A model generated the notes under the pieces. That model searched no databases. It was not told where the DNA came from and worked only from the letters and a program-made list of their open reading frames with translations. Positions 3,866 to 22,522 of a stretch of DNA of 64,000 nt are shown in pieces (position 1 is the first letter of the stretch; every line of letters begins with the position of its first letter). Source of the DNA: Clostridia bacterium (GTDB lineage Bacteria; Bacillota; Clostridia; Christensenellales; UBA1242); the NCBI GenBank assembly GCA_045598865.1, contig JAZRVA010000058.1:15300-79299 (forward strand). Direction: 5' to 3'. The position numbers were made by a program, and so were the translations under genes.

Positions 3866-4185
3866 ATGATACTTTCTTTTGCTCGGACAAGAAAGCGTTG
3901 CCAAAGAGCCCGCCACGTCGTGGCACAAGCGTTTGGTTGCAAGGCAAATAAAATTTGCCACAGGCAACACTTATGCTTGACCACTCCTTTATCCCACAAC
4001 TCACGGTGGCTCGTTGTGGGAGCCCTTAAAGGCGATTTCCCCCGGAGCCCCTTAAAACGCTTTCTGATAGGTTGTAAAAAATTTGTAGAGTTTGTGTTTA
4101 ATGTGAACAAAAAAATTAGTATTTTGATTTCTGCATTACATTTAGGGGAAAGTGGTGTGCAAAATTTTGTGGCAAAAAAGGGATT
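3866..4185 (+). repeat. Degenerate copy (R0) of the hairpin-repeat element family
   Basis: Same component order as the element at 22255-22522. It has the ctttctt/aagaaag hairpin (3872-3895), then aaagag plus a small hairpin gccac/gtggc (3912-3924). An 8-bp hairpin cccacaac/gttgtggg follows (3993-4020), then the box ttcccccggagccccttaaaacgctttctgataggttg (4037-4073). It ends with a decayed R-type end cattacatttaggggaaagtggtgtgc..ggcaaaaaagggatt (4133-4185). Confidence 0.5.
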
Positions 4186-4534
4186 AAAAGAACACAATTG
4201 TTATGCCGGAATTTAGGTTTTTTAGGTCTGAATCTACCAACAAATTTGGGTAAATTTTTGAGTAATTTTTAAAGGTTTTTCCGCTTCTTGCCAACGCTTC
4301 GTTGGCAAAAAAATCGGCAATTTTTCCTTGCTTTTTTAGGCGTTGCAGTAGTGTGGGCAGGGCCTTTTTTATTTGCCCGCCAACCCCACTTGAACCATAG
4401 CCGTGAATAATTTTTAGGCCGTCAATTTTGGGTTTTATTAGTTGCAAAATTTCAATTTCGGTTTCCACTTCCGCCAGGGCTTGGTCCACTGTGAAAGAAC
4501 CATTTTCCACATTGATTGTTTTAAAATTTTCCAT
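4184..4534 (-). CDS. Smr-like (MutS2 C-terminal type) small nuclease-domain protein, 116 aa
   Basis: MENFKTINVENGSFTVDQALAEVE...LKIIHGYGSSGVGGQIKKAL...NSGITIVFF resembles the Smr core (IIHGxG, C-terminal G.T.V). The canonical DLHG is replaced by VENG. The ORF-track extension to 4834 is only translated repeat DNA, so the start is placed at the ATG at 4534. Confidence 0.55.
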   Translation of the reverse strand: MENFKTINVENGSFTVDQALAEVETEIEILQLIKPKIDGLKIIHGYGSSGVGGQIKKALPTLLQRLKKQGKIADFFANEALARSGKTFKNYSKIYPNLLVDSDLKNLNSGITIVFF

Positions 4535-4585: not shown

Positions 4586-4977
4586 AACCCTTTGGTGCGT
4601 TTGCACCAACCTTCCCCTAAAGGGGACACTGAGAGTGAAAGTTGGCAAATTGCAACCGTGCCTAAAGGGGACACTGAGAGTGAAAGTTGGCAAATTGCAA
4701 CCATGCCTAAAGGGGACACGAAGAGTGAAAGTTGGCAAATTGCAACCGTGCCTAAAGGGGACACTGAGAGTGAAAGTTGGCAAATTGCAACCGTGCCTAA
4801 AGGGGACACAGGAAGGAGAGTTGTGTTTTTCCACCGAGTCCCTAAAACGCTTTCTGAGAGGTCGTGAAAAATTAAAAAGTGTACCGTTTGGGAAAGAGAC
4901 GAAAACTTAGCCAACAATCAATCTGTGTCCCATTTAGGGGAAGGTGGTGGGCAATTTTTATTGCACACCAAAGGGTT
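4586..4977 (+). mobile_element. MITE-like non-coding element R1 bounded by inverted hairpin ends
   Basis: Left end (4586-4629) is aaccctttggtgcgtttgcaccaaccttcccctaaaggggacac. Right end (4925-4977) is its imperfect reverse complement, gtgtcccatttaggggaaggtggtgggcaatttttattgcacaccaaagggtt. The interior holds a 45-bp array plus the conserved box ttccaccgagtccctaaaacgctttctgagaggtcg (4829-4863). TTTGTGTT occurs on both flanks (4576-4583 and 4978-4985). Confidence 0.55.
4616..4810 (+). repeat. 45-bp tandem repeat, 4.3 copies
   Basis: The unit is cctaaaggggacactgagagtgaaagttggcaaattgcaaccgtg, starting at 4616, 4661, 4706 and 4751, with a partial unit at 4796. Units differ by 0-2 substitutions. 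The period is a multiple of 3 and at least four reading frames stay open. Confidence 0.95.
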
Positions 4978-5195: not shown

Positions 5196-5371
5196 AACCC
5201 TTTGGTGCTGTTGCACCAACCTTCCCCTAAAGGGGACACTGAGAGTGAAAGTTGGCAAATTGCAACCGTGCCTAAAGGGGACACAGAGAGTGAAAGTTGG
5301 CAAATTGCAACCGTGCCTAAAGGGGACGCAGAGAAATAGTGATGAAAGCACAATTCCCCTAAATGGGACAC
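5196..5371 (+). repeat. Element copy R2 in the leader region of giant gene 1
   Basis: L-type end at 5196-5239 differs from R1 only in the hairpin loop. The same 45-bp unit occurs 2.3 times (5226-5330). An R-type core in flipped orientation, cccctaaatgggacac, follows at 5356-5371. There is no complete right end. Confidence 0.7.
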
Positions 5372-5412: not shown

Positions 5413-5443
5413 GCACTTTCTTTTGCCAGTTATAAGAAAGTGC
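5413..5443 (+). promoter_or_regulatory. Conserved 10-bp-stem hairpin (HP1) in the leader of giant gene 1
   Basis: gcactttctt-ttgccagttat-aagaaagtgc. Homologous hairpins lie at 22255-22285 and 3872-3895. There is no T-run after it, so it is not a classical terminator. Confidence 0.5.
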
Positions 5444-5509
5444 AAGATGTTTTTAAAAACAACTTTTTGAAAAAAGGTGTTAGAAAAATTTTGTTTGAGG
5501 TAAAGTTTT

Positions 5510-8500
5510 ATGAAAACAAACATTTTTAAGAAAATTTTAAAAGTCGTTGCGGGAATGGCAGTTGCGTTGGCCATGGTTTTATCCAACCCTTTGGTGCTGT
5601 TGCACCAACTTTCCCCTGCAGGGGACACGGAAAATGGTGGGGGGAGTTTGTATGCAAGTGCAAGTTCTGCCTCAAACCCAAATGTTGGCGCTGTTGCAGG
5701 CGTAAGTTCTTTGCAGGACTTGCTTGTTAAAACAACATTAACAAACAATGGATATAAAAATGATGGCACTGCAATAACAGATGATTTAACGACACAGGAC
5801 TATGTTTGGCTGCCAAAAAGCGGCTCTGCCAGCGATTTAACGGCTATTCAGGGCATGGTTACAAACAGCGATGCTGGCAGAATGACCACAGCCACCGAGT
5901 GGGCCCTTGCTAACAACAGCTACGTATATGATTGCTGCACAACTAGCTCACCATATTACTGGCTGCGCTCTGCTCCTTCTGCTTCTTATGTGCACCGTGT
6001 GTACTACTTTGGCAGTGTGGTTGACACCTATGTGTACTCCTCCTACGTTGCGGCGCGTCCCGCTTTGCAACTCAATCTTGCATCTATAATCTCCGCACGA
6101 AGTGCGTTGGGCATTGAAATTGATGCAACTGCTGGCACAATAATCATTCCGCAAGTTAAATACCCTCAAACGCTGGTTGACACAACAAGCGCTTTGGCAA
6201 CAACGTTAAACACCCTGGGCAACACAGACAGTTCCACTAGGGCAGTTAGTCCTTCTGGTGGAATGCTTGCCACAGGGGTATCCTATCCTGGCTACGACAG
6301 CAGTTACAAGGAATACTATTATGATGGAAACTACTATGTTCACGCTAAAATTAACAGATACTCGGGCTCGGATTCGTTGCCTTTTGCACAAGAGCAAGAC
6401 ACTGCCACTGAAGACCCAAGCACTCACAAGGTTACTTGGACTACTGCCGATGATTTGGCCAATGGCAAGTATGCATGGTTTAAGGTGGAGCCAATTGTAT
6501 GGCATATTTCTAACTTGAGTGAAATTTTAAGTGATATAAATAACAACAACACAAGCACCACAAACACAATGTATGTTATATCAAACCAAGCAATTGTGGA
6601 GATGGGACAATTTTATATCAACGGCAGTGATGCTTACCGCAGCATGTGGCAGAACTCCCGCTTAAGGGCATACTTAAACGGCTACAATTTGTTAGAAGAA
6701 AACGCAACAAACGGCAATGCAACTTACAATGCTGCGCTTGTTACAAACAACAATGCTAATTTTGACTTTTCTGGGCCAGGAAAGGGCTTTTTGCAAACTG
6801 TTTGGCATGAGGCTGTGCCTGCTAAGGTTATTTTTGACCCAGTGGGGGGAGATAGCTTTGTTGCATTACAATCAGCCTTGAATGTGGCAAGTGTTCAAAA
6901 TGTTAGGTTTGCATCAACTTTAACTGTTGATAATGCTTTTGTTTCTGCAAATGGGTCAACAATAGATTTTAAGGGCAAAACTCTTTCTGGGGTTGGTATA
7001 AACAACTGCTTAATTAACATAACAACTTCTTCTGATGTAACAATTGCAAATGCTAATTTTGCCGATTGCCCTTATGGCGCGATAGTGTCAACCGGCACTG
7101 GAAAATTAAATGTTCAAAATTGCACATTTACAAATTGCTATGTGAATTATGAACAAACGGTTACTTCAACTACAGTGGTGGAGAACAAGGCGCAAGGTGG
7201 GGCTATTAAAGTTACGGGAGATTTGAAGGCCACAAACTGCAATTTTGTGGGGTGCTATGCAAAGGCAAGCGTTACTGCAACTGGCAGTGGGGTGGTTGCA
7301 ACTGTTAGCAACCTTGCCCAAGGCGGCGCAATTTATGCCAAACCTGCCTCTGGCACAGCCAATGTGGAACTTACAAACTGCACATTTGACGGGTGTTATG
7401 CACAGTATTCTCAAACTTTAAACGATAGCGCCACGGCTAGCAAAGATTCTGTGGATTGTGGTGGAGCTGTGTTTGTTGAAGGTGAGTCAACGATTACAGA
7501 CTGCACTTTTACAGGTTGTTATGCTGCCGATGGTGGAGCAATTAATGCAACAACCACAAATGTTAAAGCATGCACCTTTACGGGGTGTTATGCCAGCTCT
7601 TCCGCTGGAGCAATTAGGGCAACCACACTTGAAACGCACAACTCAACCTTTGAGGGCTGCTATTCCCAGGCTGGTGGAGGGGCTGTGAGGTGCACAAACG
7701 CAAGTGTTTATGATACATCTTTTTATTCATGTCGCTCAAATAGTAGTGGTGGAGCAATACTTGCAATTACACTAAATCTTAACAATAGTTCATTCAACAA
7801 TTGTTGTGTTACTAGTGGCAACTCAGGTGCAGTTTATTGCGGAAGTTTGTATGGCGACGGCAATAAATTTACTAATTGTTATGCACAAAGTTATGGTGGA
7901 GCTATAAATTGTTCTGATGGTATACTTGAAATTAGTAATACATTGTTTGACAATTGCTACTCACAACTGTCTCAATATCAAGGCGGGGCAATTTCCACCA
8001 CAAATGGCTCTTACAAAAAGATTGTTAATTGCCAGTTTTACAACTGCTATTTAAACAATGCAAAAAATACAACAGACACTGGTTATGGCGGTGCTGTGTA
8101 TGTGGCAAACAATAGTTATACTTCACCAGGGGCATGTAGTGCCGATGTTAGCATTGTGGGGTGCGTGTTTGGCAAGTGGGTGGATGCTAATGGTGATGGT
8201 GTGGTGGATGCAAATGAAAATGAAATTTTTGGCAACAAGGCTAAATATGGCGGCGCGTGCTACATAAACACCACGGGCAATGTTACCATTGAGGATAGCA
8301 CATTTGTGGGCAACGACTTTAATTACAGCGGGGAGGTTTTTTTTAACGTGAACTTTATGGGTGCGGCACTTTATGTGCCTAGCGGAAATGGCAAAAACTT
8401 GATGCTTTCTAACTGCGTGTTTGAGCACAATGGATATGGGGTTATCTCTGGCTCAGATAAAGGCATTGGGACTTTGTTTGCAAGTGGTTATAAAACATAT

Positions 8501-14500: not shown

Positions 14501-17500
14501 TTTGGTAATAAAAACGGAAACTGTTGTGGTGTTCATTATTCATGGAGTGGAAATGGTACTTTTTATAATTGCTCTTTCTATGATAATTATACAACAAGCG
14601 GTCATAACTATGGTGGTTGTATTATTGCAACAAACGGAGATTTGTTGAAGATGTATAATTGCAAGATATACAACAATATAAGCACAAATATGAATACTAT
14701 TGGAGTGGCCAACCAAAGTGCTTATTTCTACAATACTGAGTTTTATAATAATTCAACTAGTGGAAGTTATGTGGTTGGTAACAATTATAACTGTTCAACT
14801 GTGTGGTTTGAGAATTGTAGTTTGCATAATAATAAAGGTAGAATTATAAATTCTTATACAAATGCAAATAATCTTCTTACAATGATAAATACATCCGTGT
14901 TTGCAAATAATGATACAAATGAAAATAATTATTCCATTTCACTTTCAAAAGCCAATATAGACAATTGTCAATTTTACAATAATACAAAAAACGGTTCAAA
15001 TCCATTTATTAGAGGTGAAACAGGGGATTTTTCTGTTACAAATTGCAGATTTTACAACAATAGAGCAACCCTTATTAATAGGGCTGGTGGGGTGATAACC
15101 AATTTTTCTAACAATTACATTTCTGGCAACACTGGCGAATATATAGTTAGTGTTTCTGGAACTGTAACCAATTTTGAAAACAATGTGTTTGCAAACAACA
15201 AATTAACCAGCAACAGTTATGGTGTTGTTTACATGCCAACTGGTTCTACTGTAAAGGGTTGTGTTTTCTATGGCAACACAAACGTTTCTACGGGTGCAGA
15301 CAGCCCAATTATTTTGGTTGGCAGTGGCAGAACTGTTACGTTTGACAGTTGCTTGTTCTACGAAAACGCAAGTTTGGGCACTAGTGCCACTGCAAACAAG
15401 GTGTTTAAGTTTGTGGGCGAGGCAAACTTTAACGCTTGCCAATTTGCAAATAACTACTACTATGATTCCAACCTTTCAACCACCAAAAAATTGGCAATTG
15501 CTAGTGTTTATGTGGACGGCGGCGTGGCAACTATTGACGGCTGCGTGTTCACCCTAAACCCAAGCACTGATTTGCCTTTTGGTAATTATGGCGTGTTCTA
15601 CGTGAACAGTGGCGAACTTAACATATATGGCAAGTTTGAAAAACTTGCGCTTGGTGAAGCTAATTTGGTGGTTGTTGATGGTGGCGTGGCAAACGTTTAT
15701 GCCCAAATTTTAAGCAACACGGTAAGTGTGGCAATAATTAAGCAAAGCGGTGGCGAACTTAACTTAAAGGGCACTATAATTAGCGGAAACACTGCCACCG
15801 CGGGCAGTATTATTGAGCAATTGGGCGGAGATTTGAACATACAATCTGCCACAATTTCAAATAACACTTCTAGCCAAGGCAGTGTGATTGACGCAATTGG
15901 TGGAGATTTTAGCGCAACGGGCAGCACAATTGCAAACAACACGGCAAGTGCGGGAGCTATTTTAAAAACTGGTGCGGGTGTGGCCAAAATTTCTGCCTGC
16001 ACAATAAGCGGCAACACCACGCAAAGTGGCACAATTTATACGGGTGGCATGCTTAATTTAAAACAAAACACAATTGCAAACAACACAGGCGTAAACGGTG
16101 GCGCAATATGTGTGGGCAACGGCGGTGTGTGCGTGTTGGAAAGTGGCACACTTGCCTCCAACACTGCAACAAGCGGCGGGGCAATATATGTTGAAAACGG
16201 CGGGTTGTTCACCTTGCTTGCCGGTGTTGTGGGAGAAACAAACACAGCCTCTGGCACAAATACCTCCGAGGGCGGTGGCGCAATTTATGTGGCTGAGGGC
16301 GGCAAGGCGGTTATAAACGGCGGCGAAGTTGTGGGTAACACTGCCAAGTATGGTGCAGGAATTTATAACAACGGCACCCTTGTTGTTAATGACGGAAAAT
16401 TTTGGAAAAACAAGATATCAGTAGCTAGTGGCATGGGTGGTGGAATTTATAACTCTGGCTTGGCAACCATAAATTATGTGCAACTTTCTGCCAACAATTA
16501 TATAAGCACCAGTTCTCAAACAATTTATGGTCTTGCCCTTGCAAATAGTGGAAAACTTAACATGCTTGGTGGAATTGTTGAAAATAATTCATTTGATGCT
16601 TGTTCAGGTGCTGTTTATTGCAATGAAGGCACAGCAAACATTAGTGGTGTAACATTTGATAACAATGCAAATTACTTTGGTAGTGCAATTAATGTAAAAG
16701 CAACTGCAACTGCGAAAATTGCAAACTGCACATTTAATTTGCCAACTTCATATCGTCACCCAAGTGGTGGCAATGGTAGAGGTGCTGGATTATACTTGGA
16801 AGGCAACTTTGAAGTTGAAAACTGCCATTTCTCTGGCACCGGAACAAGCAACACAAAATATAATGGTGCTGTTTACATAATCAACACCGCTAGTGGCAAA
16901 ATGACGGACTGCACGTTTGAGGATATATTCTTTAATGGCTGCTCTGCTTTTGCAGGCACTGTGGGCGCTGGCAAAACCGTGGAAATTGTGGATTGCACAA
17001 TTTCGGGGTGCAGAAAAGACGGCACAGACAGCAGTTCAAATGTGTTACAAGCAGACGGCGAGGTTATTATTGATAATTTGCATTATGTTAATAACTATGG
17101 AACGAACTATGCTGGCTTTAATTTAAGAGGGTCTGGCAGTGTTGTTATTCGCAACAGCTTGTTTGAGGGAAATTACACTACCGCAACAAATGACAATGTT
17201 GAGTTTGTATGCGCACTTGCTTTGGGTGGCACGGCAACAAAATTGGTTGACAACTGCGTGTTTAAAAACAACAATAACTCAAGCCGTTCGGTTTCTACTT
17301 TGTATATTTCAAATACTGCACAGGATGTTACAATAAAAGATTGCACATTTGAAAACAACACCTGTTATAGTGTCATTTATACAAAAACAGCAAGTGGCAC
17401 TGCAGGTAGTTTAAAATTTGTTGGCAATAACACAATTGAAAATAATAATGTTAAAAGAAAAGCAATAGATTTCGTAAATGAAAGCACAAGTGGTTTTGGC

Positions 17501-20500
17501 ATTGAACTTGGTTTTGGTGGAAAATTGTATATTTATGACAACAAAAACGCTGGTGGTGCACAGGTTAACTTTGGTGGGTTTGATAATTTGATTAACAACG
17601 GCACTTACAATGCCCGTGTTTTAATTGGAGGCCTTGCAAATGGCAGTAAAATTGGGCTAACAATTGACGATAATGCGAAAGAAGACTTATTTGTGGGCAC
17701 AAACCCAATTTCTTCCTCCGACTTTGCATGCTTTGTAAGTGATAGCGCAGATTATGTGATATATCTAGACAGCAAAAACAACAAAATAAAATATTCCACA
17801 ATCGCCTCAGCAACTGTTGTGGCAAGTGGTGAGGTTGTGTTTGCCGATGGCTACTATCACGGCTTAACAAACAGCAACTTCCAGGTTTATGATTCTGGCA
17901 CATTGCTTGACCAAACTGACTTTGTGGTAACATACAGCACACAAGAAGATGGAATTTATACGTTAGTAAGCCCACAATATGCTTGGGTTGCCCAGAATAC
18001 CGTGTATTACAGAGTGTATAAAACTGCGGATTATGAGGCAGACCCAGATTCCGCCCCATATGCAAGCGGCAGCACAAAAGTGGTTGTGGCGCAAAGATAT
18101 TTGTCGGCCTTAGTGTTGCCAAAAGCGCGCGCAGACGTGGGCGCAACACTTGCCACTGTCCTAATTTTTGGTGGCGAAGTGGTGGATAACTTTGGCTCCC
18201 CAGTTGCAGGCACTTGGGCGTTTGCAGATGGCACGGCAATAGCCACAAATGGCGGAAAGTTTGATGTAACCTTTACCCCAAGTGTGGCGGGTGTTTACGC
18301 AAACGAGGGTGGCATTTTGGGCGCAATATCTGTGGAATATAAATTTGATTTGCTTAGATATAAAGTGGATGAAGATGACTCCTCCAAAACCGCTTTCTAC
18401 TCTGGTGCAACAAAAACAAACCTAGAAACATTACAACAGGCAATGCCACTTGTGGCAAATGGCGGCAGAATTGTGTTTGACACAAATTACAAGTTTGTTT
18501 CATCCGAAAGTGTAACTACCTCCGGCACGGTTTATATCTGCAAGGGTGTAGATTTAAGAGGCAATATGTTTGTGGTCTCCGATGAAATGGAAAACTTGGC
18601 AGTAACCTTCTCTGGCAACATTGTGTTTGATGGCGCGTGGGTGGAAGGGATTAATTTAAATAAAGAATTAATATTACCAAAAACTTTCCAGCAAGTTGAA
18701 TATTTGGAAGGCACAGGTACTCAATATATTGAAAACATATGGGATATAGGTGACCACACAATTGAATTTGACATAATGCCTATTGATATGAGTGGTGGAT
18801 TTAGCAACTGGTTATTTGGTTTATATGATACGTCTGGAATAGGGTTAGATCCGTGGACTTATGGTATAACAATAAGTAATTCTACATTAACTCAAGTCTA
18901 TGCTGGAACAGTAACTCCAACTAGAGCAGCAGAAGGTGTAAGAGAAAAATATACATTTGTAACCAGAGCAGGAGCTTATTCTACTGAAAAATTAGGTTTA
19001 TTCTTTGAAACTGGATATTACGATAGAATTTTTAAAGGTAGAGTTTATTCATTTAAAGTTAAAAGAACAAGTGACGATGAATTGATACGAGATTTAATTC
19101 CTTGCTATCGTAAATCAGATAATGTAATAGGTATGTATGACATTATTAATGATGTATTTTACACTAATTCGGGAATTGGAACATTTACAAAAGGGCCAAA
19201 TGTTGGCTCTCACAATTGGGGTGTGGCGTATGATGACCGCACACAAGAAGTGCTTGATGCCGGCTTACTACCTGTTGATTATATAGAAAGTAATGGCACA
19301 CAATATATTGACACGGGTTATGTGCCTAAGAGTGATACTATTGTTGAAATAAGTTTTGAGAAAACAAGTAACAGAACACAGTATGATCAAATATTTGGGC
19401 GATTTGATGATACAAACACTAAATTTTATTTAGAATTTTATGGCGGGCACATGTATCAGCAAATTGGGAATGGTAGCTATACTTATTCTAATGCTCAACT
19501 TAATACCAGATATGATGTTACCATTTCTACAAAAAAATTTACCGTTAATGGAACAGAAAAAACGGGAAACCTAACCTTTACTCAAAACAGTTCCACCTTG
19601 CATTTGTTTGGAAGAAATGGCACCAACACCAATAACACTCAATACAACGCTGCAATGAAACTTTATTATTTTAGAGTGTATGAAGGCACCACACTTGTTA
19701 AAGACCTTGCTCCGGCTTACAACCCAAGCACTGGCAAGGCAGGGCTTTATGACTATGTTTCCAAAGCGTTTATGACAAGTGCCAACTCTGCAGACCTATC
19801 ATATGGCTCTGTTACGCTAGCAAATTTCGCTGGCGCTACTACTACTACTACTAGCTCTTATTTAGCCATAAACGGAAACAACAATTATATAGATACTGGC
19901 ATTAAATTTAACGACACCTCTAAAATTGAAATAACCTTTAGTGGCACAACCGGCGGCCAGGGCAACGGCATGGTGTTAACTGGAAACACCGGCACTAGCA
20001 GCAGTGATCATAGCGGTTATATCAATGCAAGTGGTTGGGGCTATAGTGACTTTAATTCTAACGGCACAAGAACTGGTGAGAATATTGGCAGTTTTGCCCA
20101 AGTTTTTGATGGTACTAAAAAAACCATTACTTTTAGTGGTTATAGGCATAGCAACAATTCAGCAAAAATCTGCACTGGTTATTGGGTTGATAGTTATTAT
20201 GGCAGAGAAATGTATTGGTATAACATGAAAATTTGGAACACATCTGGCGATTTAATCAGAAACTATTATCCTACAGTATCAGGTGGGCAGGGTGGCTTCT
20301 GTGACTTAATAACCGGCGAGATAAGACTTTGCACAGGAACGGCAGATGTGGCAAATTCCTATATTGTTCCAGAACATACTTATAGTAGAATTAATCTTAA
20401 CGAAGGATACAATGGTTCCGGCTTATTTAGAGTTAAGGAGGGTAGCACGCTTAACTTAGAAGGTGGTGTGAGGTTTGAAAATTGGAATAGAACAGACGGC

Positions 20501-21163
20501 TATTCTTTCATTTACAACCAAGGCACTTTGAACATAAACGGTGCAAGTTTTGTGGGCAACAGTGTGACATCAAATGGCACAGATGACGTTTATGGCGGGC
20601 TGGTTTTGAACACGGGCACAGTTAACATAAACTCTGGCACGTTTGTAAACAACAAAGTTGAGGGCTCAGGTATGGCGTTTGGTGGCATTGTGTGCAACGC
20701 TGGTGGCACCGTTAACATTAACGGCGGCACATTTGTGGATAACAAAATTTCGGCCACAAACGGCGGACATGGCGCAGTGGTGTTTAACACAAATGGTGGA
20801 ACAACCAGTGTGTTTGGCGGCGAGTTTGTTAGAAACTCTGCCAACTATGGTGGCGTGGTGGCAAACGGAACTGGCACACTTGTGTTTGCCGGTGGCACAA
20901 CCAGTATGAACGTGGCAACCGTTAGCAATGGTGGCGCAGTGGTTAATGGGACAAATGTTGATGGAATTTCTAGCATAATTTATTTGGGTGGAGAAATGGT
21001 TGCAAACAGCATTCTTGCAAACGGGCAGCCAATCCCACAAAAAACAAACGTTGAAATCGCCGGCACAAACCATGCTCTTTGGGCTTGCATTGTGGCGCTT
21101 TTGGGCGCAGTTATTGCCTTTGTTTTTTGGAGAGTTTTAGAGCTTTCAAAAAGGAAAAATTAA
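5510..21163 (+). CDS. Giant secreted, C-terminally membrane-anchored beta-helix repeat surface protein (5,217 aa), putative adhesin
   Basis: Uninterrupted 15,654-nt ORF with gaggt SD 8 nt upstream. Signal peptide is MKTNIFKKILKVVAGMAVALAMVLS. A DUF6273-like segment is present (YYWLRSAPS...AARPALQLNL). Many GGAI/GGAV rungs (AQGGAIKV, DGGAINA, GGGAVRC, YGGAINC) resemble polymorphic-membrane-protein or pectin-lyase-like beta-helices. Four jelly-roll-like modules are present. The C-terminal helix LWACIVALLGAVIAFVFW is followed by RVLELSKRKN. Confidence 0.9.
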   Translation: MKTNIFKKILKVVAGMAVALAMVLSNPLVLLHQLSPAGDTENGGGSLYASASSASNPNVGAVAGVSSLQDLLVKTTLTNNGYKNDGTAITDDLTTQDYVWLPKSGSASDLTAIQGMVTNSDAGRMTTATEWALANNSYVYDCCTTSSPYYWLRSAPSASYVHRVYYFGSVVDTYVYSSYVAARPALQLNLASIISARSALGIEIDATAGTIIIPQVKYPQTLVDTTSALATTLNTLGNTDSSTRAVSPSGGMLATGVSYPGYDSSYKEYYYDGNYYVHAKINRYSGSDSLPFAQEQDTATEDPSTHKVTWTTADDLANGKYAWFKVEPIVWHISNLSEILSDINNNNTSTTNTMYVISNQAIVEMGQFYINGSDAYRSMWQNSRLRAYLNGYNLLEENATNGNATYNAALVTNNNANFDFSGPGKGFLQTVWHEAVPAKVIFDPVGGDSFVALQSALNVASVQNVRFASTLTVDNAFVSANGSTIDFKGKTLSGVGINNCLINITTSSDVTIANANFADCPYGAIVSTGTGKLNVQNCTFTNCYVNYEQTVTSTTVVENKAQGGAIKVTGDLKATNCNFVGCYAKASVTATGSGVVATVSNLAQGGAIYAKPASGTANVELTNCTFDGCYAQYSQTLNDSATASKDSVDCGGAVFVEGESTITDCTFTGCYAADGGAINATTTNVKACTFTGCYASSSAGAIRATTLETHNSTFEGCYSQAGGGAVRCTNASVYDTSFYSCRSNSSGGAILAITLNLNNSSFNNCCVTSGNSGAVYCGSLYGDGNKFTNCYAQSYGGAINCSDGILEISNTLFDNCYSQLSQYQGGAISTTNGSYKKIVNCQFYNCYLNNAKNTTDTGYGGAVYVANNSYTSPGACSADVSIVGCVFGKWVDANGDGVVDANENEIFGNKAKYGGACYINTTGNVTIEDSTFVGNDFNYSGEVFFNVNFMGAALYVPSGNGKNLMLSNCVFEHNGYGVISGSDKGIGTLFASGYKTYITNCVFDDCRGGVASALKINGSGNFVMSNTIIKDTTTGYGGLVDVGDFNYLSVSNCSFSGYKNGNHRNDAKTLYRFAGNTEIEFKSNIIFNHDYTSTTASGTCVSLDSVTGTVKKIEGNTFEQNKSFTNVLNVFNSYRVQSYLKDNKFVNNTNKDGGGNIVNVNVYTYNSVTLDGGDRLVVEDCVFEGNSGRALYAGAHINTIKNCTFSNNTLASGNGAAINLPKPTAGSTGLTDPPYLKTSEKNQILNCKFSGNLTSANDSLGGAIYSIENRVDIVSCQFSANQAKSAGGAIRADITNSDNREHCLISISNCQFYANVASNGDGGAVSSTNKSECDGCLFEKNSARKGGAVSMNFAPTFKNCNFYDNYATTEGGAIFSGSSVSLTDCLISNNYAGTNGGGAKGNAFSIKGGTQIINNYCGSSGFGAGVYVSYIGFTLVPSAKAIVINNNFGNAVWDDTNKKVESYDENKPSNVYKVDPYMIGFDSSYFKYGKPNIDVGFSFNNLDIQNHIGDGKDYCFVVHETEWAYSDILECLHPDVTTVEITSGDNAGIYDLVPYYDSAKYMLKIIKQGSDNIEYVASGFYGPYDGWWHTVDVKVVSPDSGYTIKYSNAENGTFSADLVENQTVFKDVTVERTVWFTIEASGKTTVKDSAKVTIIAMPTQIILSSAKLTADFGTSFAVNTSLNGYLTGAFVVDANGNNVAGDFYFSTAQTMSMQSGAIKAFGGNLTFKPSNSNFAAPTAVAASGIAGAVVYTDLWYYDGYFYNTLARAATKSGESITSDTTYRVSKADNGATLTAMLKFLPANATVYFLTAYNVAANETLEIGTNNFVFTKITDTNIVGIIGNTNNIFSIQSGKTLTITTDKFGRLTICGVGTASNNQALIANAGTLTIDGNVVISANNTTGNASLKGAGISGGTVNLTGVTLTGLVAADCAAIYASGNLSLTDVVVNNCTTNANNSIVCTNGTATINYSTISGNSGNNRNDVLINGGGSDVVHAINGSNMDSVYFASSAGGTINLSGNVQIPKMSYYFYESSTSGFAVYNVGLTAASRIKLNATNSTVVGTYALRTAVYSLDGIYGKIFSLLNSGTGIGGLGISGGFMVVLATSSSSTEDEEDEEDEYLRVLPTGLQEVEYIERSSGTITLNANFNPQTDIFELVYSSNEFFWWPYGMWTSSNCSVFTINGASQYYSNFNVSSKTRLTFGKSRIRLENLSSGAQTGTSNSAWGTQTSSSFEFLSGNYYGFKVWSNEILVHNLVPCVVKADQTFTDSTDTTYNENKVGFYDVLTGIFYCGSGFSASATTGFYEEIYWDPANTSTNADDANNGSQYAPVLSLDKAVKLAKQYGAVVKQLSTLTVSTETTLDFKNVVLGRASGFTGDHLSVSTTDAVTVNNVRVDGNYTTVGDLFAYKISTVAGANVTLNNFKMDTLTYGGIKFAGDSTTKTAVLNINNAKINSRCNSMSDNDEKRCININNTETVTLTNCDLSGSAQIYCSDGTLNINNCNLHDNCFGSGTQAVPGGAVRAATVVAKNCKFINNKTSKSGGAIYASSVNATNCTFSDGTVGYNVHGAGICSSGNVVVENCRFENLACSTSGDTHGGAISANGTVTAKSCQFIKTAAYQGGGIFAGGDVYLENCDFDKIFKFYSATNHWGAAFVHAGSNKITAINCTFTDSWAGKSIFQCGAMVMDNCIISGCSNGTSYGSCSIQCSSIEATNCTFIDNNCTINEKGIIYCTGNVTLTNCDISRNTTRDTIIFADNASANVVIKDTKINNNTVTGQDIGQNGSTNWVLNFAGGVYVAGTANITNSEICNNSATRKMTVNNNSGVEINCVGGLFVRGETTLSNVKINNNAFSSTNMNVHDNTTKTEINTIGGLLVKNTLTLSNVEINNNTVNVTETLTNNASQSYTEVGGLRSTSTATLTNVEICHNTSTNGIGGLSTGGGTWLNVTVGYNTGYTYGVGITSATQITNSNFCYNTVTRNTSESMSGLHLNAGSTFTNCNFFGNKNGNCCGVHYSWSGNGTFYNCSFYDNYTTSGHNYGGCIIATNGDLLKMYNCKIYNNISTNMNTIGVANQSAYFYNTEFYNNSTSGSYVVGNNYNCSTVWFENCSLHNNKGRIINSYTNANNLLTMINTSVFANNDTNENNYSISLSKANIDNCQFYNNTKNGSNPFIRGETGDFSVTNCRFYNNRATLINRAGGVITNFSNNYISGNTGEYIVSVSGTVTNFENNVFANNKLTSNSYGVVYMPTGSTVKGCVFYGNTNVSTGADSPIILVGSGRTVTFDSCLFYENASLGTSATANKVFKFVGEANFNACQFANNYYYDSNLSTTKKLAIASVYVDGGVATIDGCVFTLNPSTDLPFGNYGVFYVNSGELNIYGKFEKLALGEANLVVVDGGVANVYAQILSNTVSVAIIKQSGGELNLKGTIISGNTATAGSIIEQLGGDLNIQSATISNNTSSQGSVIDAIGGDFSATGSTIANNTASAGAILKTGAGVAKISACTISGNTTQSGTIYTGGMLNLKQNTIANNTGVNGGAICVGNGGVCVLESGTLASNTATSGGAIYVENGGLFTLLAGVVGETNTASGTNTSEGGGAIYVAEGGKAVINGGEVVGNTAKYGAGIYNNGTLVVNDGKFWKNKISVASGMGGGIYNSGLATINYVQLSANNYISTSSQTIYGLALANSGKLNMLGGIVENNSFDACSGAVYCNEGTANISGVTFDNNANYFGSAINVKATATAKIANCTFNLPTSYRHPSGGNGRGAGLYLEGNFEVENCHFSGTGTSNTKYNGAVYIINTASGKMTDCTFEDIFFNGCSAFAGTVGAGKTVEIVDCTISGCRKDGTDSSSNVLQADGEVIIDNLHYVNNYGTNYAGFNLRGSGSVVIRNSLFEGNYTTATNDNVEFVCALALGGTATKLVDNCVFKNNNNSSRSVSTLYISNTAQDVTIKDCTFENNTCYSVIYTKTASGTAGSLKFVGNNTIENNNVKRKAIDFVNESTSGFGIELGFGGKLYIYDNKNAGGAQVNFGGFDNLINNGTYNARVLIGGLANGSKIGLTIDDNAKEDLFVGTNPISSSDFACFVSDSADYVIYLDSKNNKIKYSTIASATVVASGEVVFADGYYHGLTNSNFQVYDSGTLLDQTDFVVTYSTQEDGIYTLVSPQYAWVAQNTVYYRVYKTADYEADPDSAPYASGSTKVVVAQRYLSALVLPKARADVGATLATVLIFGGEVVDNFGSPVAGTWAFADGTAIATNGGKFDVTFTPSVAGVYANEGGILGAISVEYKFDLLRYKVDEDDSSKTAFYSGATKTNLETLQQAMPLVANGGRIVFDTNYKFVSSESVTTSGTVYICKGVDLRGNMFVVSDEMENLAVTFSGNIVFDGAWVEGINLNKELILPKTFQQVEYLEGTGTQYIENIWDIGDHTIEFDIMPIDMSGGFSNWLFGLYDTSGIGLDPWTYGITISNSTLTQVYAGTVTPTRAAEGVREKYTFVTRAGAYSTEKLGLFFETGYYDRIFKGRVYSFKVKRTSDDELIRDLIPCYRKSDNVIGMYDIINDVFYTNSGIGTFTKGPNVGSHNWGVAYDDRTQEVLDAGLLPVDYIESNGTQYIDTGYVPKSDTIVEISFEKTSNRTQYDQIFGRFDDTNTKFYLEFYGGHMYQQIGNGSYTYSNAQLNTRYDVTISTKKFTVNGTEKTGNLTFTQNSSTLHLFGRNGTNTNNTQYNAAMKLYYFRVYEGTTLVKDLAPAYNPSTGKAGLYDYVSKAFMTSANSADLSYGSVTLANFAGATTTTTSSYLAINGNNNYIDTGIKFNDTSKIEITFSGTTGGQGNGMVLTGNTGTSSSDHSGYINASGWGYSDFNSNGTRTGENIGSFAQVFDGTKKTITFSGYRHSNNSAKICTGYWVDSYYGREMYWYNMKIWNTSGDLIRNYYPTVSGGQGGFCDLITGEIRLCTGTADVANSYIVPEHTYSRINLNEGYNGSGLFRVKEGSTLNLEGGVRFENWNRTDGYSFIYNQGTLNINGASFVGNSVTSNGTDDVYGGLVLNTGTVNINSGTFVNNKVEGSGMAFGGIVCNAGGTVNINGGTFVDNKISATNGGHGAVVFNTNGGTTSVFGGEFVRNSANYGGVVANGTGTLVFAGGTTSMNVATVSNGGAVVNGTNVDGISSIIYLGGEMVANSILANGQPIPQKTNVEIAGTNHALWACIVALLGAVIAFVFWRVLELSKRKN
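5585..5634 (+). repeat. In-frame copy of the L-type repeat end inside giant gene 1 (codons 26-42)
   Basis: aaccctttggtgctgttgcaccaactttcccctgcaggggacacggaaaa has 3 mismatches to the 44-nt end at 5196. It is translated as NPLVLLHQLSPAGDTEN, immediately after the signal-peptide h-region. Confidence 0.85.
11876..12400 (+). other. Jelly-roll/LamG-like module, giant gene 1 copy 1, preceded by the acidic linker TEDEEDEEDEY (11834-11866)
   Basis: Starts LPTGLQEVEYIERSSG and ends KVGFYDVLTGIFYCGSG. It shares the start and end signatures of the other eight modules. Confidence 0.5.
18674..20350 (+). other. Three tandem jelly-roll/LamG-like modules near the C-terminus of giant gene 1
   Basis: Module starts are LPKTFQQVEYLEGTGTQYIEN (18674), LLPVDYIESNGTQYIDTGY (19265) and SSYLAINGNNNYIDTGI (19853). 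Module ends are GMYDIINDVFYTNSGIGTF, GLYDYVSKAFMTS and GFCDLITGEIRLCTG. Confidence 0.55.
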
Positions 21164-21169
21164 AAATTT

Positions 21170-21328
21170 AAGTGTCCCATCAAGGGGGTTGCTATATGAT
21201 TTATTAAGTGTCCCCTCAAGGGAAAGGGGGTATATAAGTTAAAAGTGTCCCCTCAAGGGGAAGGGGGTATATAAGTTAAAAGTGTCCCCTCAAGGGGAAG
21301 GTGGTAGGCTTTTGCCTACCAAAGGGTT
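21170..21328 (+). repeat. Tandem array of the R-type core (about 36-37-bp period, three units) ending in a complete R-type end
   Basis: The unit aagtgtcccctcaaggggaagggggtatataagttaa starts at 21170 (diverged), 21206 and 21243. The complete end gtgtcccctcaaggggaaggtggtaggcttttgcctaccaaagggtt follows at 21282-21328. The array begins 7 nt after the giant-gene stop codon. Confidence 0.85.
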
Positions 21329-21332
21329 AAAA

Positions 21333-21689
21333 ATGTTAGAACTAAAATACAACCAAAAAAACATCAATAAAGGCAAAGAGTTAAGAAAAACCATGACCAA
21401 AGAAGAACGTAAACTTTGGTTTGAATTCTTAACAAACTTGCCTATAAAAATTTACCGGCAAAAACTTATTGGAAATTTTATTGTTGATTTTTATTGCCAC
21501 AAAAAGAAAATTGCAATTGAAATTGATGGCAGTCAGCACTTTTTTGATGACGAAAAGCACAAAGACGAATTGCGGACGGAATATTTAAATTCGCTTGGAA
21601 TAACAGTTTTGAGGTATTCTAATTTGGATATTTCTAAAAATTTTAGTTCTGTTTGCAAAGATATTTATAATAAAATTTTTGAGGATTAA
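21333..21689 (+). CDS. DUF559 (Vsr-like, PD-(D/E)xK fold) endonuclease-domain protein, 118 aa
   Basis: ELRKTMTKEERKLWFEFL...YRQKLIGNFIVDFYCHKKKIAIEIDGSQH...ELRTEYLNSLGITVLRYSNLDI matches the DUF559 consensus (LR...T.aE..LW, FRRQ.piG.yIvDF.C, viElDG.qH, vlRf.N). The start is set at the ATG at 21333. The ORF-track start at 21282 lies inside the repeat. Confidence 0.85.
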   Translation: MLELKYNQKNINKGKELRKTMTKEERKLWFEFLTNLPIKIYRQKLIGNFIVDFYCHKKKIAIEIDGSQHFFDDEKHKDELRTEYLNSLGITVLRYSNLDISKNFSSVCKDIYNKIFED

Positions 21690-21704
21690 TTAAAACTTTT
21701 TTTA

Positions 21705-21962
21705 AACCCTTTGGTGCTTTGCACCAGCCTTCCCCTAAAGGGGACACTGAGAGTGAAAGTTGGCAAATTACAACCATGCCTAAAGGGGACACGGAAAAAA
21801 AGTAAACTCAATTTTTCCAGTTAGAATATATAAACATGTGTGTGTAATTTTTTCAGTTAGAATACGAGGAAAGTTGTCCCACCTCTAAGGAAAATACTAA
21901 AACTTGTATTAATTTGTGTCCCCTCAAGGGGAAGGTGGTAGGCTTTTGCCTACCAAAGGGTT
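21705..21962 (+). mobile_element. MITE-like element copy B bounded by inverted hairpin ends
   Basis: L-type end at 21705-21747, 1.3 copies of the 45-bp unit (21734-21792), and an internal direct repeat cagttagaata (two copies). The R-type end at 21916-21962 is identical to 21282-21328. Confidence 0.6.
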
Positions 21963-21986
21963 AAAACTCGCTCATAAAACCAATAA

Positions 21987-22016
21987 AACCCGTGGTGCGA
22001 CCCACGGGTTTTTTCT
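21987..22016 (+). terminator. Rho-independent terminator closing the giant gene 1 / DUF559 unit
   Basis: 9-bp stem aacccgtgg / ccacgggtt, 6-nt loop, followed by a T-run (22009-22014). Confidence 0.8.
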
Positions 22017-22254
22017 ATTTTTATTACCAAACAAAAAACACTAAACAAAATTGTTACATGTGGCTAAAATAGCAACTTGCACAAACTTTTAACTTTTTAA
22101 AAACTTTTGGGTTTTTGTGGCAAAAAATTGCGTTTTTTGTTTGGTGAAATTGCCTTTATATAATATAATTATTCTTGTATAATTATACCCACTATGCTCA
22201 TTATAACTTTGAGGGTTAAAGTTCTTTTGCAAAAGACGTTTCAAGAAAAGCATT

Positions 22255-22285
22255 GCCCTTTCTTGTAACTGGCAAAAGAAAGGGC
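22255..22285 (+). promoter_or_regulatory. HP1 hairpin copy upstream of giant gene 2, with its loop inverted
   Basis: gccctttctt-gtaactggcaa-aagaaagggc. The loop is the reverse complement of the loop at 5423-5433 (10 of 11 nt). One stem pair is changed from A-T to C-G. Confidence 0.5.
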
Positions 22286-22293
22286 GCAAAGAA

Positions 22294-22522
22294 AACCCTT
22301 TGGTGCTGTGCACCAACCTTCCCCTAAAGGGGACACAACAAGTGTTATGTTGCCATAAAGGGGACACGGCAAGAGTGTTTGGCAAGTGCAAACATACCCA
22401 AAGGGGATGCGGAAAAAAGAAATTGCGATTCCCAAGAGACCCCTAAAACGCTTTCTAAGAGGTTAAGAAAACTAGAAAAGTGTCCCATTTAGGGGAAGGT
22501 GGTGCGAAGGCACCAAAGGGTT
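22294..22522 (+). mobile_element. TIR-bounded element R4 in the leader of giant gene 2 (MITE-like; an invertible segment cannot be excluded)
   Basis: Left end (22294-22336) is aaccctttggtgctgtgcaccaaccttcccctaaaggggacac. Right end (22480-22522) gtgtcccatttaggggaaggtggtgcgaaggcaccaaagggtt is its reverse complement apart from the loop, one indel and one mismatch. The interior has diverged aaaggggacac units and the box attcccaagagacccctaaaacgctttctaagaggtt (22429-22464). Confidence 0.6.

Follow-up and report, generated by a model that had tools for sequence, protein, structure and literature searches.

DUF559 nuclease genes adjoin structured intergenic repeats from Clostridia to Escherichia coli

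Introduction

A 64,000-nucleotide (nt) stretch from a Clostridia bacterium (GenBank contig JAZRVA010000058.1, positions 15,300 to 79,299 of the forward strand; the window in what follows) carries a 118-residue gene of the DUF559 family, predicted to encode a Vsr-like PD-(D/E)XK nuclease, between two inverted copies of a structured repeat. A first reading of the letters by a model without database searches (the sequence-only reading) likened this arrangement to the REP/REPIN sequences that flank RAYT genes and proposed a new partnership of nuclease and repeat. Do the gene and the repeats belong together and, if they do, which of them depends on the other? To our knowledge, no role has been assigned to the very large DUF559 family, and the BoxC/PIT/triplex-motif repeats that enter the comparison below have been catalogued since the early 1990s with no function, mode of spread or associated protein reported. 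Here, we find the physical coupling of DUF559 genes and repeats across lineages to be established at the level of sequence, and weigh the explanations for it.

Results

The DUF559 gene of the window is framed by two repeat units

The gene and the features of its intergenic zone are as follows.

21333..21689, plus strand: DUF559 (Vsr-like PD-(D/E)XK) gene, 118 aa plus stop codon, assigned from Pfam PF04480, invariant residues and a structure model
21282..21328, plus strand: full repeat unit in R orientation, with hairpin 1, hairpin 2 and purine tail, from the sequence and its single-stranded DNA fold
21705..21747, minus strand: full repeat unit in inverted (L) orientation, beginning 15 nt past the stop codon
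21172..21281, plus strand: head-only partial units, with a variant head at 21172-21186 and two 37-nt tandem copies at 21206-21279 that run into the R unit
21172, 21208 and 21245, plus strand: head-motif matches within 21172..21281, from a motif search
21748..21792, minus strand: 45-nt segment with a head-only partial unit at 21778-21792, the same 45-nt module as in the arrays at 4630-4810
21916..21962, plus strand: second R-unit copy, identical over 47 nt (51 nt including the following AAAA)
21985..22012, plus strand: intrinsic-terminator-like hairpin and T run, 11 pairs, 6 of them G-C
22294..22336, minus strand: full repeat unit in L orientation, then a partial head at 22353-22367
22480..22522, plus strand: full repeat unit in R orientation, 80 nt upstream of the 9260-aa open reading frame (ORF)

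The R unit at 21282-21328 reads GTGTCCCCTCAAGGGGAAGGTGGTAGGCTTTTGCCTACCAAAGGGTT and is followed by AAAA and then by the ATG at 21333, and thus ends 4 nt before the start codon of the DUF559 gene. The stop codon TAA occupies 21687-21689. Both distances, 4 nt on one side and 15 nt on the other, had been given in the sequence-only reading and were recovered on re-reading the letters, as was the identical 47-nt copy of the R unit at 21916-21962, an exact repeat 634 nt away. The public gene call P0001 (135 aa) begins at a GTG at 21282, within the repeat. This version is probably too long, and the ATG at 21333 agrees better with the alignment of homologues.

A search for the head motif of the repeat, GTGTCCCNNNNNGGG, gave 20 matches in the window where 1.0 would be expected, and none of 100 shuffles reached 20. 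With the exception of one copy in the start of a 5217-aa ORF, these matches are confined to two zones between genes, at 4.1-5.6 kb and at 21.16-22.6 kb. A giant surface-protein gene (5217 aa and 9260 aa, respectively) lies downstream of each zone. The window holds nine full units. A sigma-70-like promoter was looked for between the upstream stop codon and the ATG at 21333 and not found; as there is also no space for one, the DUF559 gene is likely read through from the 5217-aa gene. The terminator-like hairpin at 21985-22012 probably closes the transcript of the DUF559 gene.

The repeat unit keeps its architecture while its second hairpin varies

Each unit is composed of three parts, a head hairpin, a second hairpin and a purine tail. 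In the head hairpin, the pyrimidine arm is rich in C and the purine arm in G. The head of the window units is TCCCC-loop-GGGGA, followed by AGG; the second hairpin is closed by GGT...ACC and the tail is AAARGGTT. Thus, the R unit at 21282-21328 contains TCCCC-TCAA-GGGGA as hairpin 1, GGTAGGC-TTTT-GCCTACC as hairpin 2 and AAAGGGTT as its tail. When folded as single-stranded DNA, the units give exactly the head hairpin and the second hairpin, and for this R unit the two hairpins have a folding energy of -12.4 kcal/mol (z -3.4).

The second hairpin is kept in shape, not in sequence. Across the window and related loci we counted 51 different versions of 4-21 bp, all of which fold. Each version is a near-perfect palindrome closed by GGT..ACC and different in almost every copy, and some process seems to generate new palindromes between two conserved blocks.

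Two types of unit can be distinguished, type A (GTGTTCCC..GGGAAAGG..AAAAGGTT) and type B (GTGTCCCC..GGGGAAGG..AAAGGGTT). The three differences between them co-vary, with 33 units of the C/G/G kind (C:G.G), 17 of the T/A/A kind (T:A.A) and 2 exceptions. This covariation could reflect two subfamilies related by descent instead of a real base triple. All full units in the window are type B. In relatives, inverted A+B pairs are typical, with the heads pointing outward, the tails inward and an AT-rich spacer of 4-17 nt between them (L001, L003, L010, L012, L043, L046, L060, L071, L073, L077, L078 and L088). Gene-less pairs are bounded exactly by GTGT...ACAC, and L003 has duplicates of them at different sites. 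No target-site duplications were found for units or pairs, and their flanks differ on the two sides. The purine tail mirrors the purine arm exactly in L096 (GGAGGGAG) and over only 4-5 nt in the window. As a rule, units are located at gene 3' ends.

At an orthologous site downstream of the DUF559 gene in L001 and L003 (3372-3517), the subtypes of the pair are swapped (A+/B- and B+/A-) and the second hairpins differ; the pair seems to have undergone a flip or a replacement. Short tandem arrays of head-only fragments, with periods of 45 nt and 37 nt, are found at 4630-4810, 5240-5330, 21206-21316 and 21748-21792.

Several known classes were considered for these repeats and set aside. Within the 37-nt and 45-nt arrays the "spacers" do not differ from one another, and therefore the arrays are plain tandem repeats and not CRISPR-like. 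A known RNA family was rejected, as no Rfam family matched the repeats of the window or of L090/L093 at the gathering or E<=1 thresholds. A classical transposon or miniature inverted-repeat transposable element (MITE) was rejected for lack of target-site duplications and of a transposase. Integron attC cassettes also seem a poor match, as no integrase occurs in any locus and the units are not of the R''-L''...L'-R' type.

The protein has an intact Vsr-like nuclease fold

The window protein matches PF04480 (DUF559) with an E-value of 1e-27 (96.6 bits against a cut-off of 20.6) over profile positions 4-108 of 109. Its only Pfam matches are DUF559, MTES_1575 and DUF2726, with no HUH Y1 or other transposase domain among them. 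Residues D52, E63, D65, G66, Q68 and H69 (VDFYC...IELDGSQH) are invariant in 17 homologues of 51-71% identity, in which an N-terminal helix, LRKNMTxxERxLW, is also conserved. Thus, the candidate catalytic residues D52, E63, D65, Q68 and H69, which the sequence-only reading had wanted checked, are intact.

We used AlphaFold to model the protein (pLDDT 77.8, pTM 0.72). In Foldseek comparisons, the best matches in the PDB were 3hrl (E 4e-5) and 3r3p (E 5e-5), while Vsr itself (1vsr, 1cw0) was weaker and mitoribosomal proteins with a RAP domain took ranks 4-8. The 3hrl entry, which also matches by sequence (E 2e-14), is NGO0050, a DUF559 protein of Neisseria gonorrhoeae, and 3r3p is the catalytic domain of the homing endonuclease I-Bth0305I. 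The Vsr-like fold proposed at first sight is therefore upheld, in an EDxHD-like form. Given the invariant residues and the fold matches, we read the DUF559 gene as an intact nuclease-type gene under constraint.

Units adjoin the DUF559 gene at ten independent Clostridia loci

Homologues in Clostridia (51-71% identity) were drawn from metagenome-assembled genomes and metagenomes, mostly of rumen or gut origin, and resolve into ten independent loci (the window, L001-4, L005-9, L012, L089, L090-92, L093-95, L096, L097-98 and L099). At all ten, units lie within ~65 nt of the start or stop codon of the DUF559 gene. The gene follows thioredoxin/flavodoxin in L001-4, pol IV in L090-92, a HAD hydrolase in L093-95 and surE in L099; it precedes gerA in L005-9 and mutS in L097-98; it is placed between aroB and aroA in L089 and between a his gene and rnc in L096, and is found on a small contig in L012. 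At no locus examined does it sit in an intron, an intein or a conserved gene; it is always intergenic and inside repeats. In the loci of 15-20 kb, the units are rare away from the DUF559 gene, and in the tight operon gaps of L089, L096 and L099 they are the only non-coding content.

The sequence of the unit is specific to the lineage, as the tails AAAGGGTT, GATGAGGTG, GGAGGGAGAGAT and ATAGGGGAG illustrate, and the architecture is constant. Units of L089, L090, L093 and L099 have the head CCTTCYCC-TYRA-GGRGAAGG and the tail GATGAGGTG, that of L096 has the head CCTCCCTC-TGAG-GAGGGAGG and the tail GGAGGGAGAGAT, and that of L097 has the head CTTCCCCC-TCT-GGGGGAAG and the tail ATAGGGGAG. Thus, the linkage of DUF559 gene and repeat is non-random and recurs across lineages and genomic contexts, with a repeat sequence that tracks the lineage as in REP/RAYT.

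The units also enter the ends of the gene itself. In L089 and L093, the TGA stop codon forms the loop of the head hairpin, and the proteins end ..SPSP or ..ASP. Such unit-encoded C-termini (..SPSP*, ..TSS..PSPQGEG), with the stop codon inside the unit, were found in 43 of the 120 nearest homologue clusters (36%). At the other end, purine tails in other lineages (GGAGGGAG, GAGGTGG, AGGGGAG) abut the start codon and resemble a Shine-Dalgarno sequence at several loci. This, together with the missing sigma-70-like promoter in the window, makes plausible the earlier suggestion that the repeat end supplies the only Shine-Dalgarno-like sequence of the window gene. Near-consensus promoters occupy the gap between R unit and gene in L005 (TTGACT-17-TATAAT) and L012 (TTGACA-17-TATACT).

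Bracketing by inverted copies, in the order R-gene-L, is seen in L005, L012, L096 and L097 as well as in the window, which settles the question, raised with the first reading, of whether other DUF559 genes are framed in the same way. The orders gene-R-L, L-gene-R and R-L-gene-R occur too, and the picture of a gene that fills the gap between two repeat ends thus holds for these five loci and not universally. Two of them, the window and L005, are non-orthologous and share the R-unit stem GGTAGGC/GCCTACC upstream of the gene, a stem that is unique among the 51 variants. This would fit a module in which the gene and the units beside it travel together. At the gerA locus, samples differ by whole units, and L006 has an empty pair (R-GATAAG-L) beside the filled one.

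We also searched from the side of the repeat. A strict pattern on genome contigs returned 4 loci, and a relaxed pattern on metagenome contigs returned 72, only 14 of which are true family members; most are unrelated conserved human-gut coding sequence or chance matches. The DUF559 gene is absent from most true repeat loci (3 of 4 in genomes, 13 of 14 in metagenomes), as expected if gene-less copies outnumber gene-bearing ones. On viral contigs, the pattern had three matches, none of which passed the family check.

The association extends to other phyla

A tblastn search with the window protein against a plasmid collection, which includes some chromosomes filed as plasmids, found DUF559 genes in N. 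gonorrhoeae, E. coli, Synechocystis, Pseudanabaena, Azospirillum, Shinella, Deinococcus and Photobacterium. Hairpins with a pyrimidine arm and a purine arm lie beside the gene in all of these taxa. The Shinella unit has the same three-part layout, with CCTTCTCCCC-AGC-GGGGAGAAGG, a small hairpin and GATGAGGGGG immediately ahead of the ATG. When 17 loci from four phyla were taken together, a strict detector reported 97 hairpins. Of these, 30 are no more than 150 nt from the gene, in a zone that covers 2.9% of the sequence (binomial P 1.7e-22). By this detector 14 of the 17 loci score, and in the remaining three the hairpins are visible by eye.

In plasmids of two Deinococcus species, the DUF559 gene occupies different intergenic positions of the same hpa (4-hydroxyphenylacetate) operon (L113, 9968-10309; L117, 9968-10306), and both copies have CCTCCCCC..GGGGGAGG hairpins on both sides. 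In N. gonorrhoeae (L114, 20 kb around NGO0050), an array of CTCTCTCCC-TGT-GGGAGAGAG units follows the gene; this locus contains 23 strict hairpins in 20 kb, spaced every ~281 nt in the stretch examined (L102). The repeat had been taken at first for a genome-specific one, a view that no longer stands: it shares its architecture with the BoxC/PIT/triplex-motif class of repeats described in cyanobacteria and E. coli.

E. coli ycjD lies beside BoxC repeats that also occur in genomes without it

The DUF559 gene of E. coli is ycjD. We compared its neighbourhood in K-12, fabI-ycjD-sapF (L103, 1142-1760; L104, 4041-4828), with the literature on BoxC/PIT (potential intrastrand triplex)/TMECO repeats, which covers E. 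coli, cyanobacteria and others (Bergler 1992; Hoyne 2000; Holder 2015, PMC4666352). The ycjD protein ends ...RRSPSP, and its TGA lies in the loop of a degenerate BoxC hairpin. A canonical BoxC/TMECO (CCCTCGCCCCTCTGGGGAGAGGGTTAGGGTGAGGG) that agrees with the consensus is located 168 nt downstream, with a ~45-nt remnant of a second ycjD 3' end between the two. A perfect 17-bp hairpin covers the start codon of ycjD. The TMECO consensus, CCCTCNCCC N3-6 GGGNGAGGG N3 GGGNGAGGG, does not describe the window units (GTGTCCCC N4 GGGGAAGG, hairpin, AAAGGGTT).

The 23 copies of BoxC/PIT/TMECO in MG1655 include five loci with inverted pairs of type A and type B (PMC4666352). In vitro the sequence can adopt an intrastrand triplex, and its loci in E. 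coli are unusually rearranged (PMC4666352). Neither a function nor an enzyme that mobilises it is known; the main paper on BoxC (PMC4666352) mentions neither ycjD nor an endonuclease.

Across complete E. coli genomes, the repeat beside ycjD is present in 5426 of 5426, at a median of 15 places, whereas ycjD is present in 3378 (62%) and absent from 38%. Strains with and without ycjD have similar numbers of extra BoxC matches. The sequence-only reading had named repeats without the gene as a case that would count against a partnership, and E. coli presents this case. A universal repeat with a gene in only 62% of strains argues against obligate dependence of the RAYT kind. It speaks instead for a gene that resides in the repeats or homes into them.

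An Smr-like gene serves as a negative control

The second repeat zone of the window surrounds a different small gene.

4184..4534, minus strand: Smr-like 116-aa gene between the unit at 4586-4629 and a decayed unit at 4133-4185; negative control, outside the system
4586..4629, minus strand: full repeat unit, then four 45-nt head-only modules at 4630-4810
4925..4977, plus strand: full repeat unit with a longer, imperfect hairpin 2
5196..5239, minus strand: full repeat unit, then 45-nt partial modules to ~5330 and a head at 5357-5371
5585..5628, minus strand: full repeat unit in the signal-peptide region of the 5217-aa ORF, inside the coding sequence

The Smr match of the gene at 4184-4534 (E 9e-4) is below the Pfam cut-off. 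Homologues of 53% and 84% identity (L100, L101) keep the synteny of Smr gene and giant gene and have no units, so the Smr gene is a bystander, and the idea that any small nuclease gene bracketed by units is a partner was rejected. In L101 (88-438), the 84%-identical gene has the opposite orientation relative to the giant gene, which suggests that an inversion may have occurred between the inverted units that flank the Smr gene of the window. As this gene is bracketed in the same manner as the DUF559 gene and its homologues lack the repeats, bracketing at a single locus proves little. The evidential weight for DUF559 is its recurrence across loci.

The unit at 5585-5628 is in frame and encodes ..LSNPLVLLHQLSPAGDTENGG.. 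in the signal-peptide region. A giant protein in L101 has the same N-terminus (MKTNIFKKILKVVAG) and lacks the LSNPLVLLHQLSPAGDTENGG stretch; on this comparison, the unit appears to have been inserted into the coding sequence of the 5217-aa protein. Thus, units can surround or enter ordinary genes.

In each of the two adjacent giant ORFs, at 5510-21163 (5217 aa) and 22602-50384 (9260 aa), a signal peptide is combined with beta-helix/PMP-like repeats and a C-terminal membrane anchor. Besides the units, the regions upstream of these ORFs have conserved blocks in common, for example 4840-4892 with 22441-22493 and 5413-5473, inverted, with 22225-22285.

Discussion

A selfish gene in structured repeats is proposed as the best explanation

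We propose that the DUF559 gene may be a small selfish nuclease gene living inside structured intergenic repeats, which would serve it both as a landing pad and as an expression context. We give this explanation a probability of about 45%. The nuclease would recognise the conserved shape of the unit and not its sequence, either as a hairpin, as a cruciform of a unit pair or as a transient intrastrand triplex, and would nick or cut there. Recombinational repair from a gene-bearing copy could then move the gene into other units in a homing-like manner, and the units would be shuffled, duplicated and inverted as a by-product of that repair. The window gene would probably have no promoter of its own and use read-through from the 5217-aa gene, with the unit tail as its ribosome-binding site. 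A more specific version, in which T:G mismatches from A/B pairs in an extruded hairpin are the target of a Vsr-like nickase, cannot be general, since the window units are all type B.

This selfish, repeat-nested explanation is favoured by the homing-endonuclease-like fold and by a gene that relocates between lineages yet is always found in units. It is also favoured by the variable orientation of the units around the gene, by unit arrays that differ between strains and by E. coli repeats that seem independent of the gene. In an independent study, "DUF559 domain-containing protein" was among the annotations most enriched in predicted targets of programmed inversion (odds ratio 14.3; PMC9881135), the outcome that inverted units overlapping the gene would produce.

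Several observations weigh against it. No clean pair of filled and empty versions of one orthologous site was found across genomes, and a search aimed at an empty site for the window element returned no orthologue of the N-terminus of the 9260-aa protein (best 35% identity). In E. coli strain S88, which lacks ycjD, the eefRABC operon replaces the segment of ycjD and TMECO, which is not cleanly missing. There is one copy of the DUF559 gene per locus in the loci seen, and the orientation of the units around it is not fixed. The 118-aa protein has no obvious separate DNA-binding domain, unlike the characterised Vsr-like homing endonucleases. Finally, VsrA of Caulobacter, which has a DUF559 domain, is functionally linked to a cytosine methyltransferase (PMC12907096), a link that points to a role in repair.

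A wider proposal is that small DUF559/YcjD-family nucleases are the missing partner of BoxC/PIT/triplex-motif repeats in general, acting as structure-specific cutters of the pyrimidine/purine hairpin, or of a transient triplex or cruciform, that drive their spread, shuffling, inversion and instability. This would amount to a second symbiosis of the REP/RAYT kind, with another fold and with a representative in E. coli K-12 itself. We offer this tentatively and regard it as rather unlikely.

Alternative explanations

In a partnership of the RAYT kind, a domesticated and usually single-copy nuclease would cleave and disseminate the units, R-gene-L would be the autonomous form, unit pairs the non-autonomous form, and the repeats would depend on the nuclease. 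The geometry matches that of RAYT genes flanked by inverted REPs, and the repeat sequence co-varies with the nuclease lineage. The gene-less pairs, with their exact ends and their duplication, point the same way, as do the empty pair that adjoins the filled one in L006 and the scarcity of the gene among genome and true metagenome repeat loci. However, such dependence sits badly with the E. coli counts, in which BoxC is universal, ycjD is not, and extra BoxC matches are as numerous in its absence. Furthermore, a PD-(D/E)XK nickase alone has no known strand-transfer chemistry, target-site duplications are absent, and a second hairpin that differs in nearly every copy is a poor fit to copying from a master element. 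We judge a partnership of this kind unlikely.

Alternatively, the protein could be a housekeeping enzyme of Vsr-type repair that nicks T:G mismatches or lesions genome-wide. The units would then be REP-like elements that stabilise mRNA, insulate or sequester a ribosome-binding site and accumulate round a weakly expressed accessory gene, with no relation of enzyme and substrate. The tie between Caulobacter VsrA and the ScmA cytosine methyltransferase (PMC12907096) speaks for this explanation. It also accommodates the Shine-Dalgarno-like tails, which in L093 and E. coli base-pair with a complementary stretch upstream (in E. coli as the 17-bp hairpin over the ycjD start), the ordinary Smr gene of the window flanked by units, and the usual position of units at gene 3' ends. 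What it leaves unexplained is why one family adjoins repeats at every locus examined, in four phyla, and how its gene relocates between lineages while inside units; moreover, no methyltransferase gene adjoins the DUF559 gene in the window. On balance, this explanation is improbable.

A function at the level of RNA, in which the protein would bind or process unit hairpins in transcripts as RAP-domain proteins, which share the fold, bind organellar RNA, appears very improbable. Its attraction lies in the RAP-domain mitoribosomal proteins among the best structural matches, in the description of FASTKD4 as a Vsr-like RNA-binding protein (PMC11879112) and in the probable co-transcription of the window units with the DUF559 gene. 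Yet the units are equally conserved in both orientations, and it is as DNA that the pairs are symmetric. RNA, moreover, does not form the purine-motif triplex to which the covariation points (PMC4666352). The empty Rfam search and the conserved acidic catalytic residues, typical of DNA nucleases, argue in the same direction.

Coincidence, or a shared preference of gene and repeats for permissive intergenic regions, is highly improbable despite the chance bracketing of the Smr gene by inserted units and the clustering of the window repeats in just two large intergenic zones, as it is strongly disfavoured by the pooled enrichment (P about 1e-22), by genes in tight operon gaps with units as their sole non-coding content and by stop codons inside units in 36% of homologues.

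Significance

We found no published link between DUF559 or ycjD and repeats in a literature search that was incomplete and did not extend to older subscription literature on BoxC. Judged from the loci collected here, the arrangement would be a partnership of nuclease and repeat in the manner of REP/RAYT, built from different parts and apparently undescribed. The link spans rumen Clostridia to E. coli ycjD and joins two open questions, that of the family and that of the repeats, into one in a model organism. Were the link functional, it would add a second, independent partnership between a nuclease and a family of genomic repeats, and offer a candidate source of structure-specific nucleases. 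It would also explain the spurious low-complexity C-terminal extensions (..SPSP, ..PSPQGEG) of annotated DUF559 proteins.

Comparison with known systems

The system resembles REP/REPIN-RAYT in its dispersed, lineage-specific hairpin repeats, often in inverted pairs, in a small nuclease gene set between inverted copies of the genome's own repeats, and in its many gene-less copies and lack of target-site duplication. It differs in fold and chemistry, since RAYT (TnpA-REP) is an IS200/IS605-like HUH Y1 enzyme and DUF559 has the PD-(D/E)XK/Vsr-like fold. The units carry a C-tract/G-tract hairpin and a hypervariable second hairpin and lack the GTAG/CGTC tag of REP, and in E. coli the repeats are universal and the gene is not.

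With the Vsr-like (EDxHD) homing endonucleases such as I-Bth0305I (PMC3239194, PMC2677866), the DUF559 protein shares its catalytic fold. Those enzymes have extra DNA-binding modules, act on a unique target instead of a repeat family and are located in introns or between the split-intein halves of conserved genes. Vsr-like homing endonucleases that stand free have also been described (PMC2677866, PMC3239194). The likeness is to these "fractured gene" endonucleases, free-standing small selfish genes with regulatory hairpins upstream of the start codon.

Like MITEs and insertion sequences, the window element has terminal inverted repeats, here of 43-47 nt, around a gene, and shorter gene-less derivatives with exact ends occur. 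Unlike MITEs, it shows no target-site duplication and no transposase of a known class, and its ends are internally structured and hypervariable. The unit placed in frame in the coding sequence of the 5217-aa ORF recalls the Rickettsia palindromic elements, to which the sequences are unrelated and which have no associated nuclease gene.

In layout, the units resemble BoxC/PIT/TMECO, where a pyrimidine arm, a loop and a purine arm are likewise followed by a purine block, and where intergenic units of type A and type B likewise form inverted pairs, as they do in relatives. The window units depart from BoxC in a duplex arm of only 4-5 bp and in a variable hairpin in place of its 3-nt loop, and their potential to form a triplex rests only on a partial mirror match and one covarying triple.

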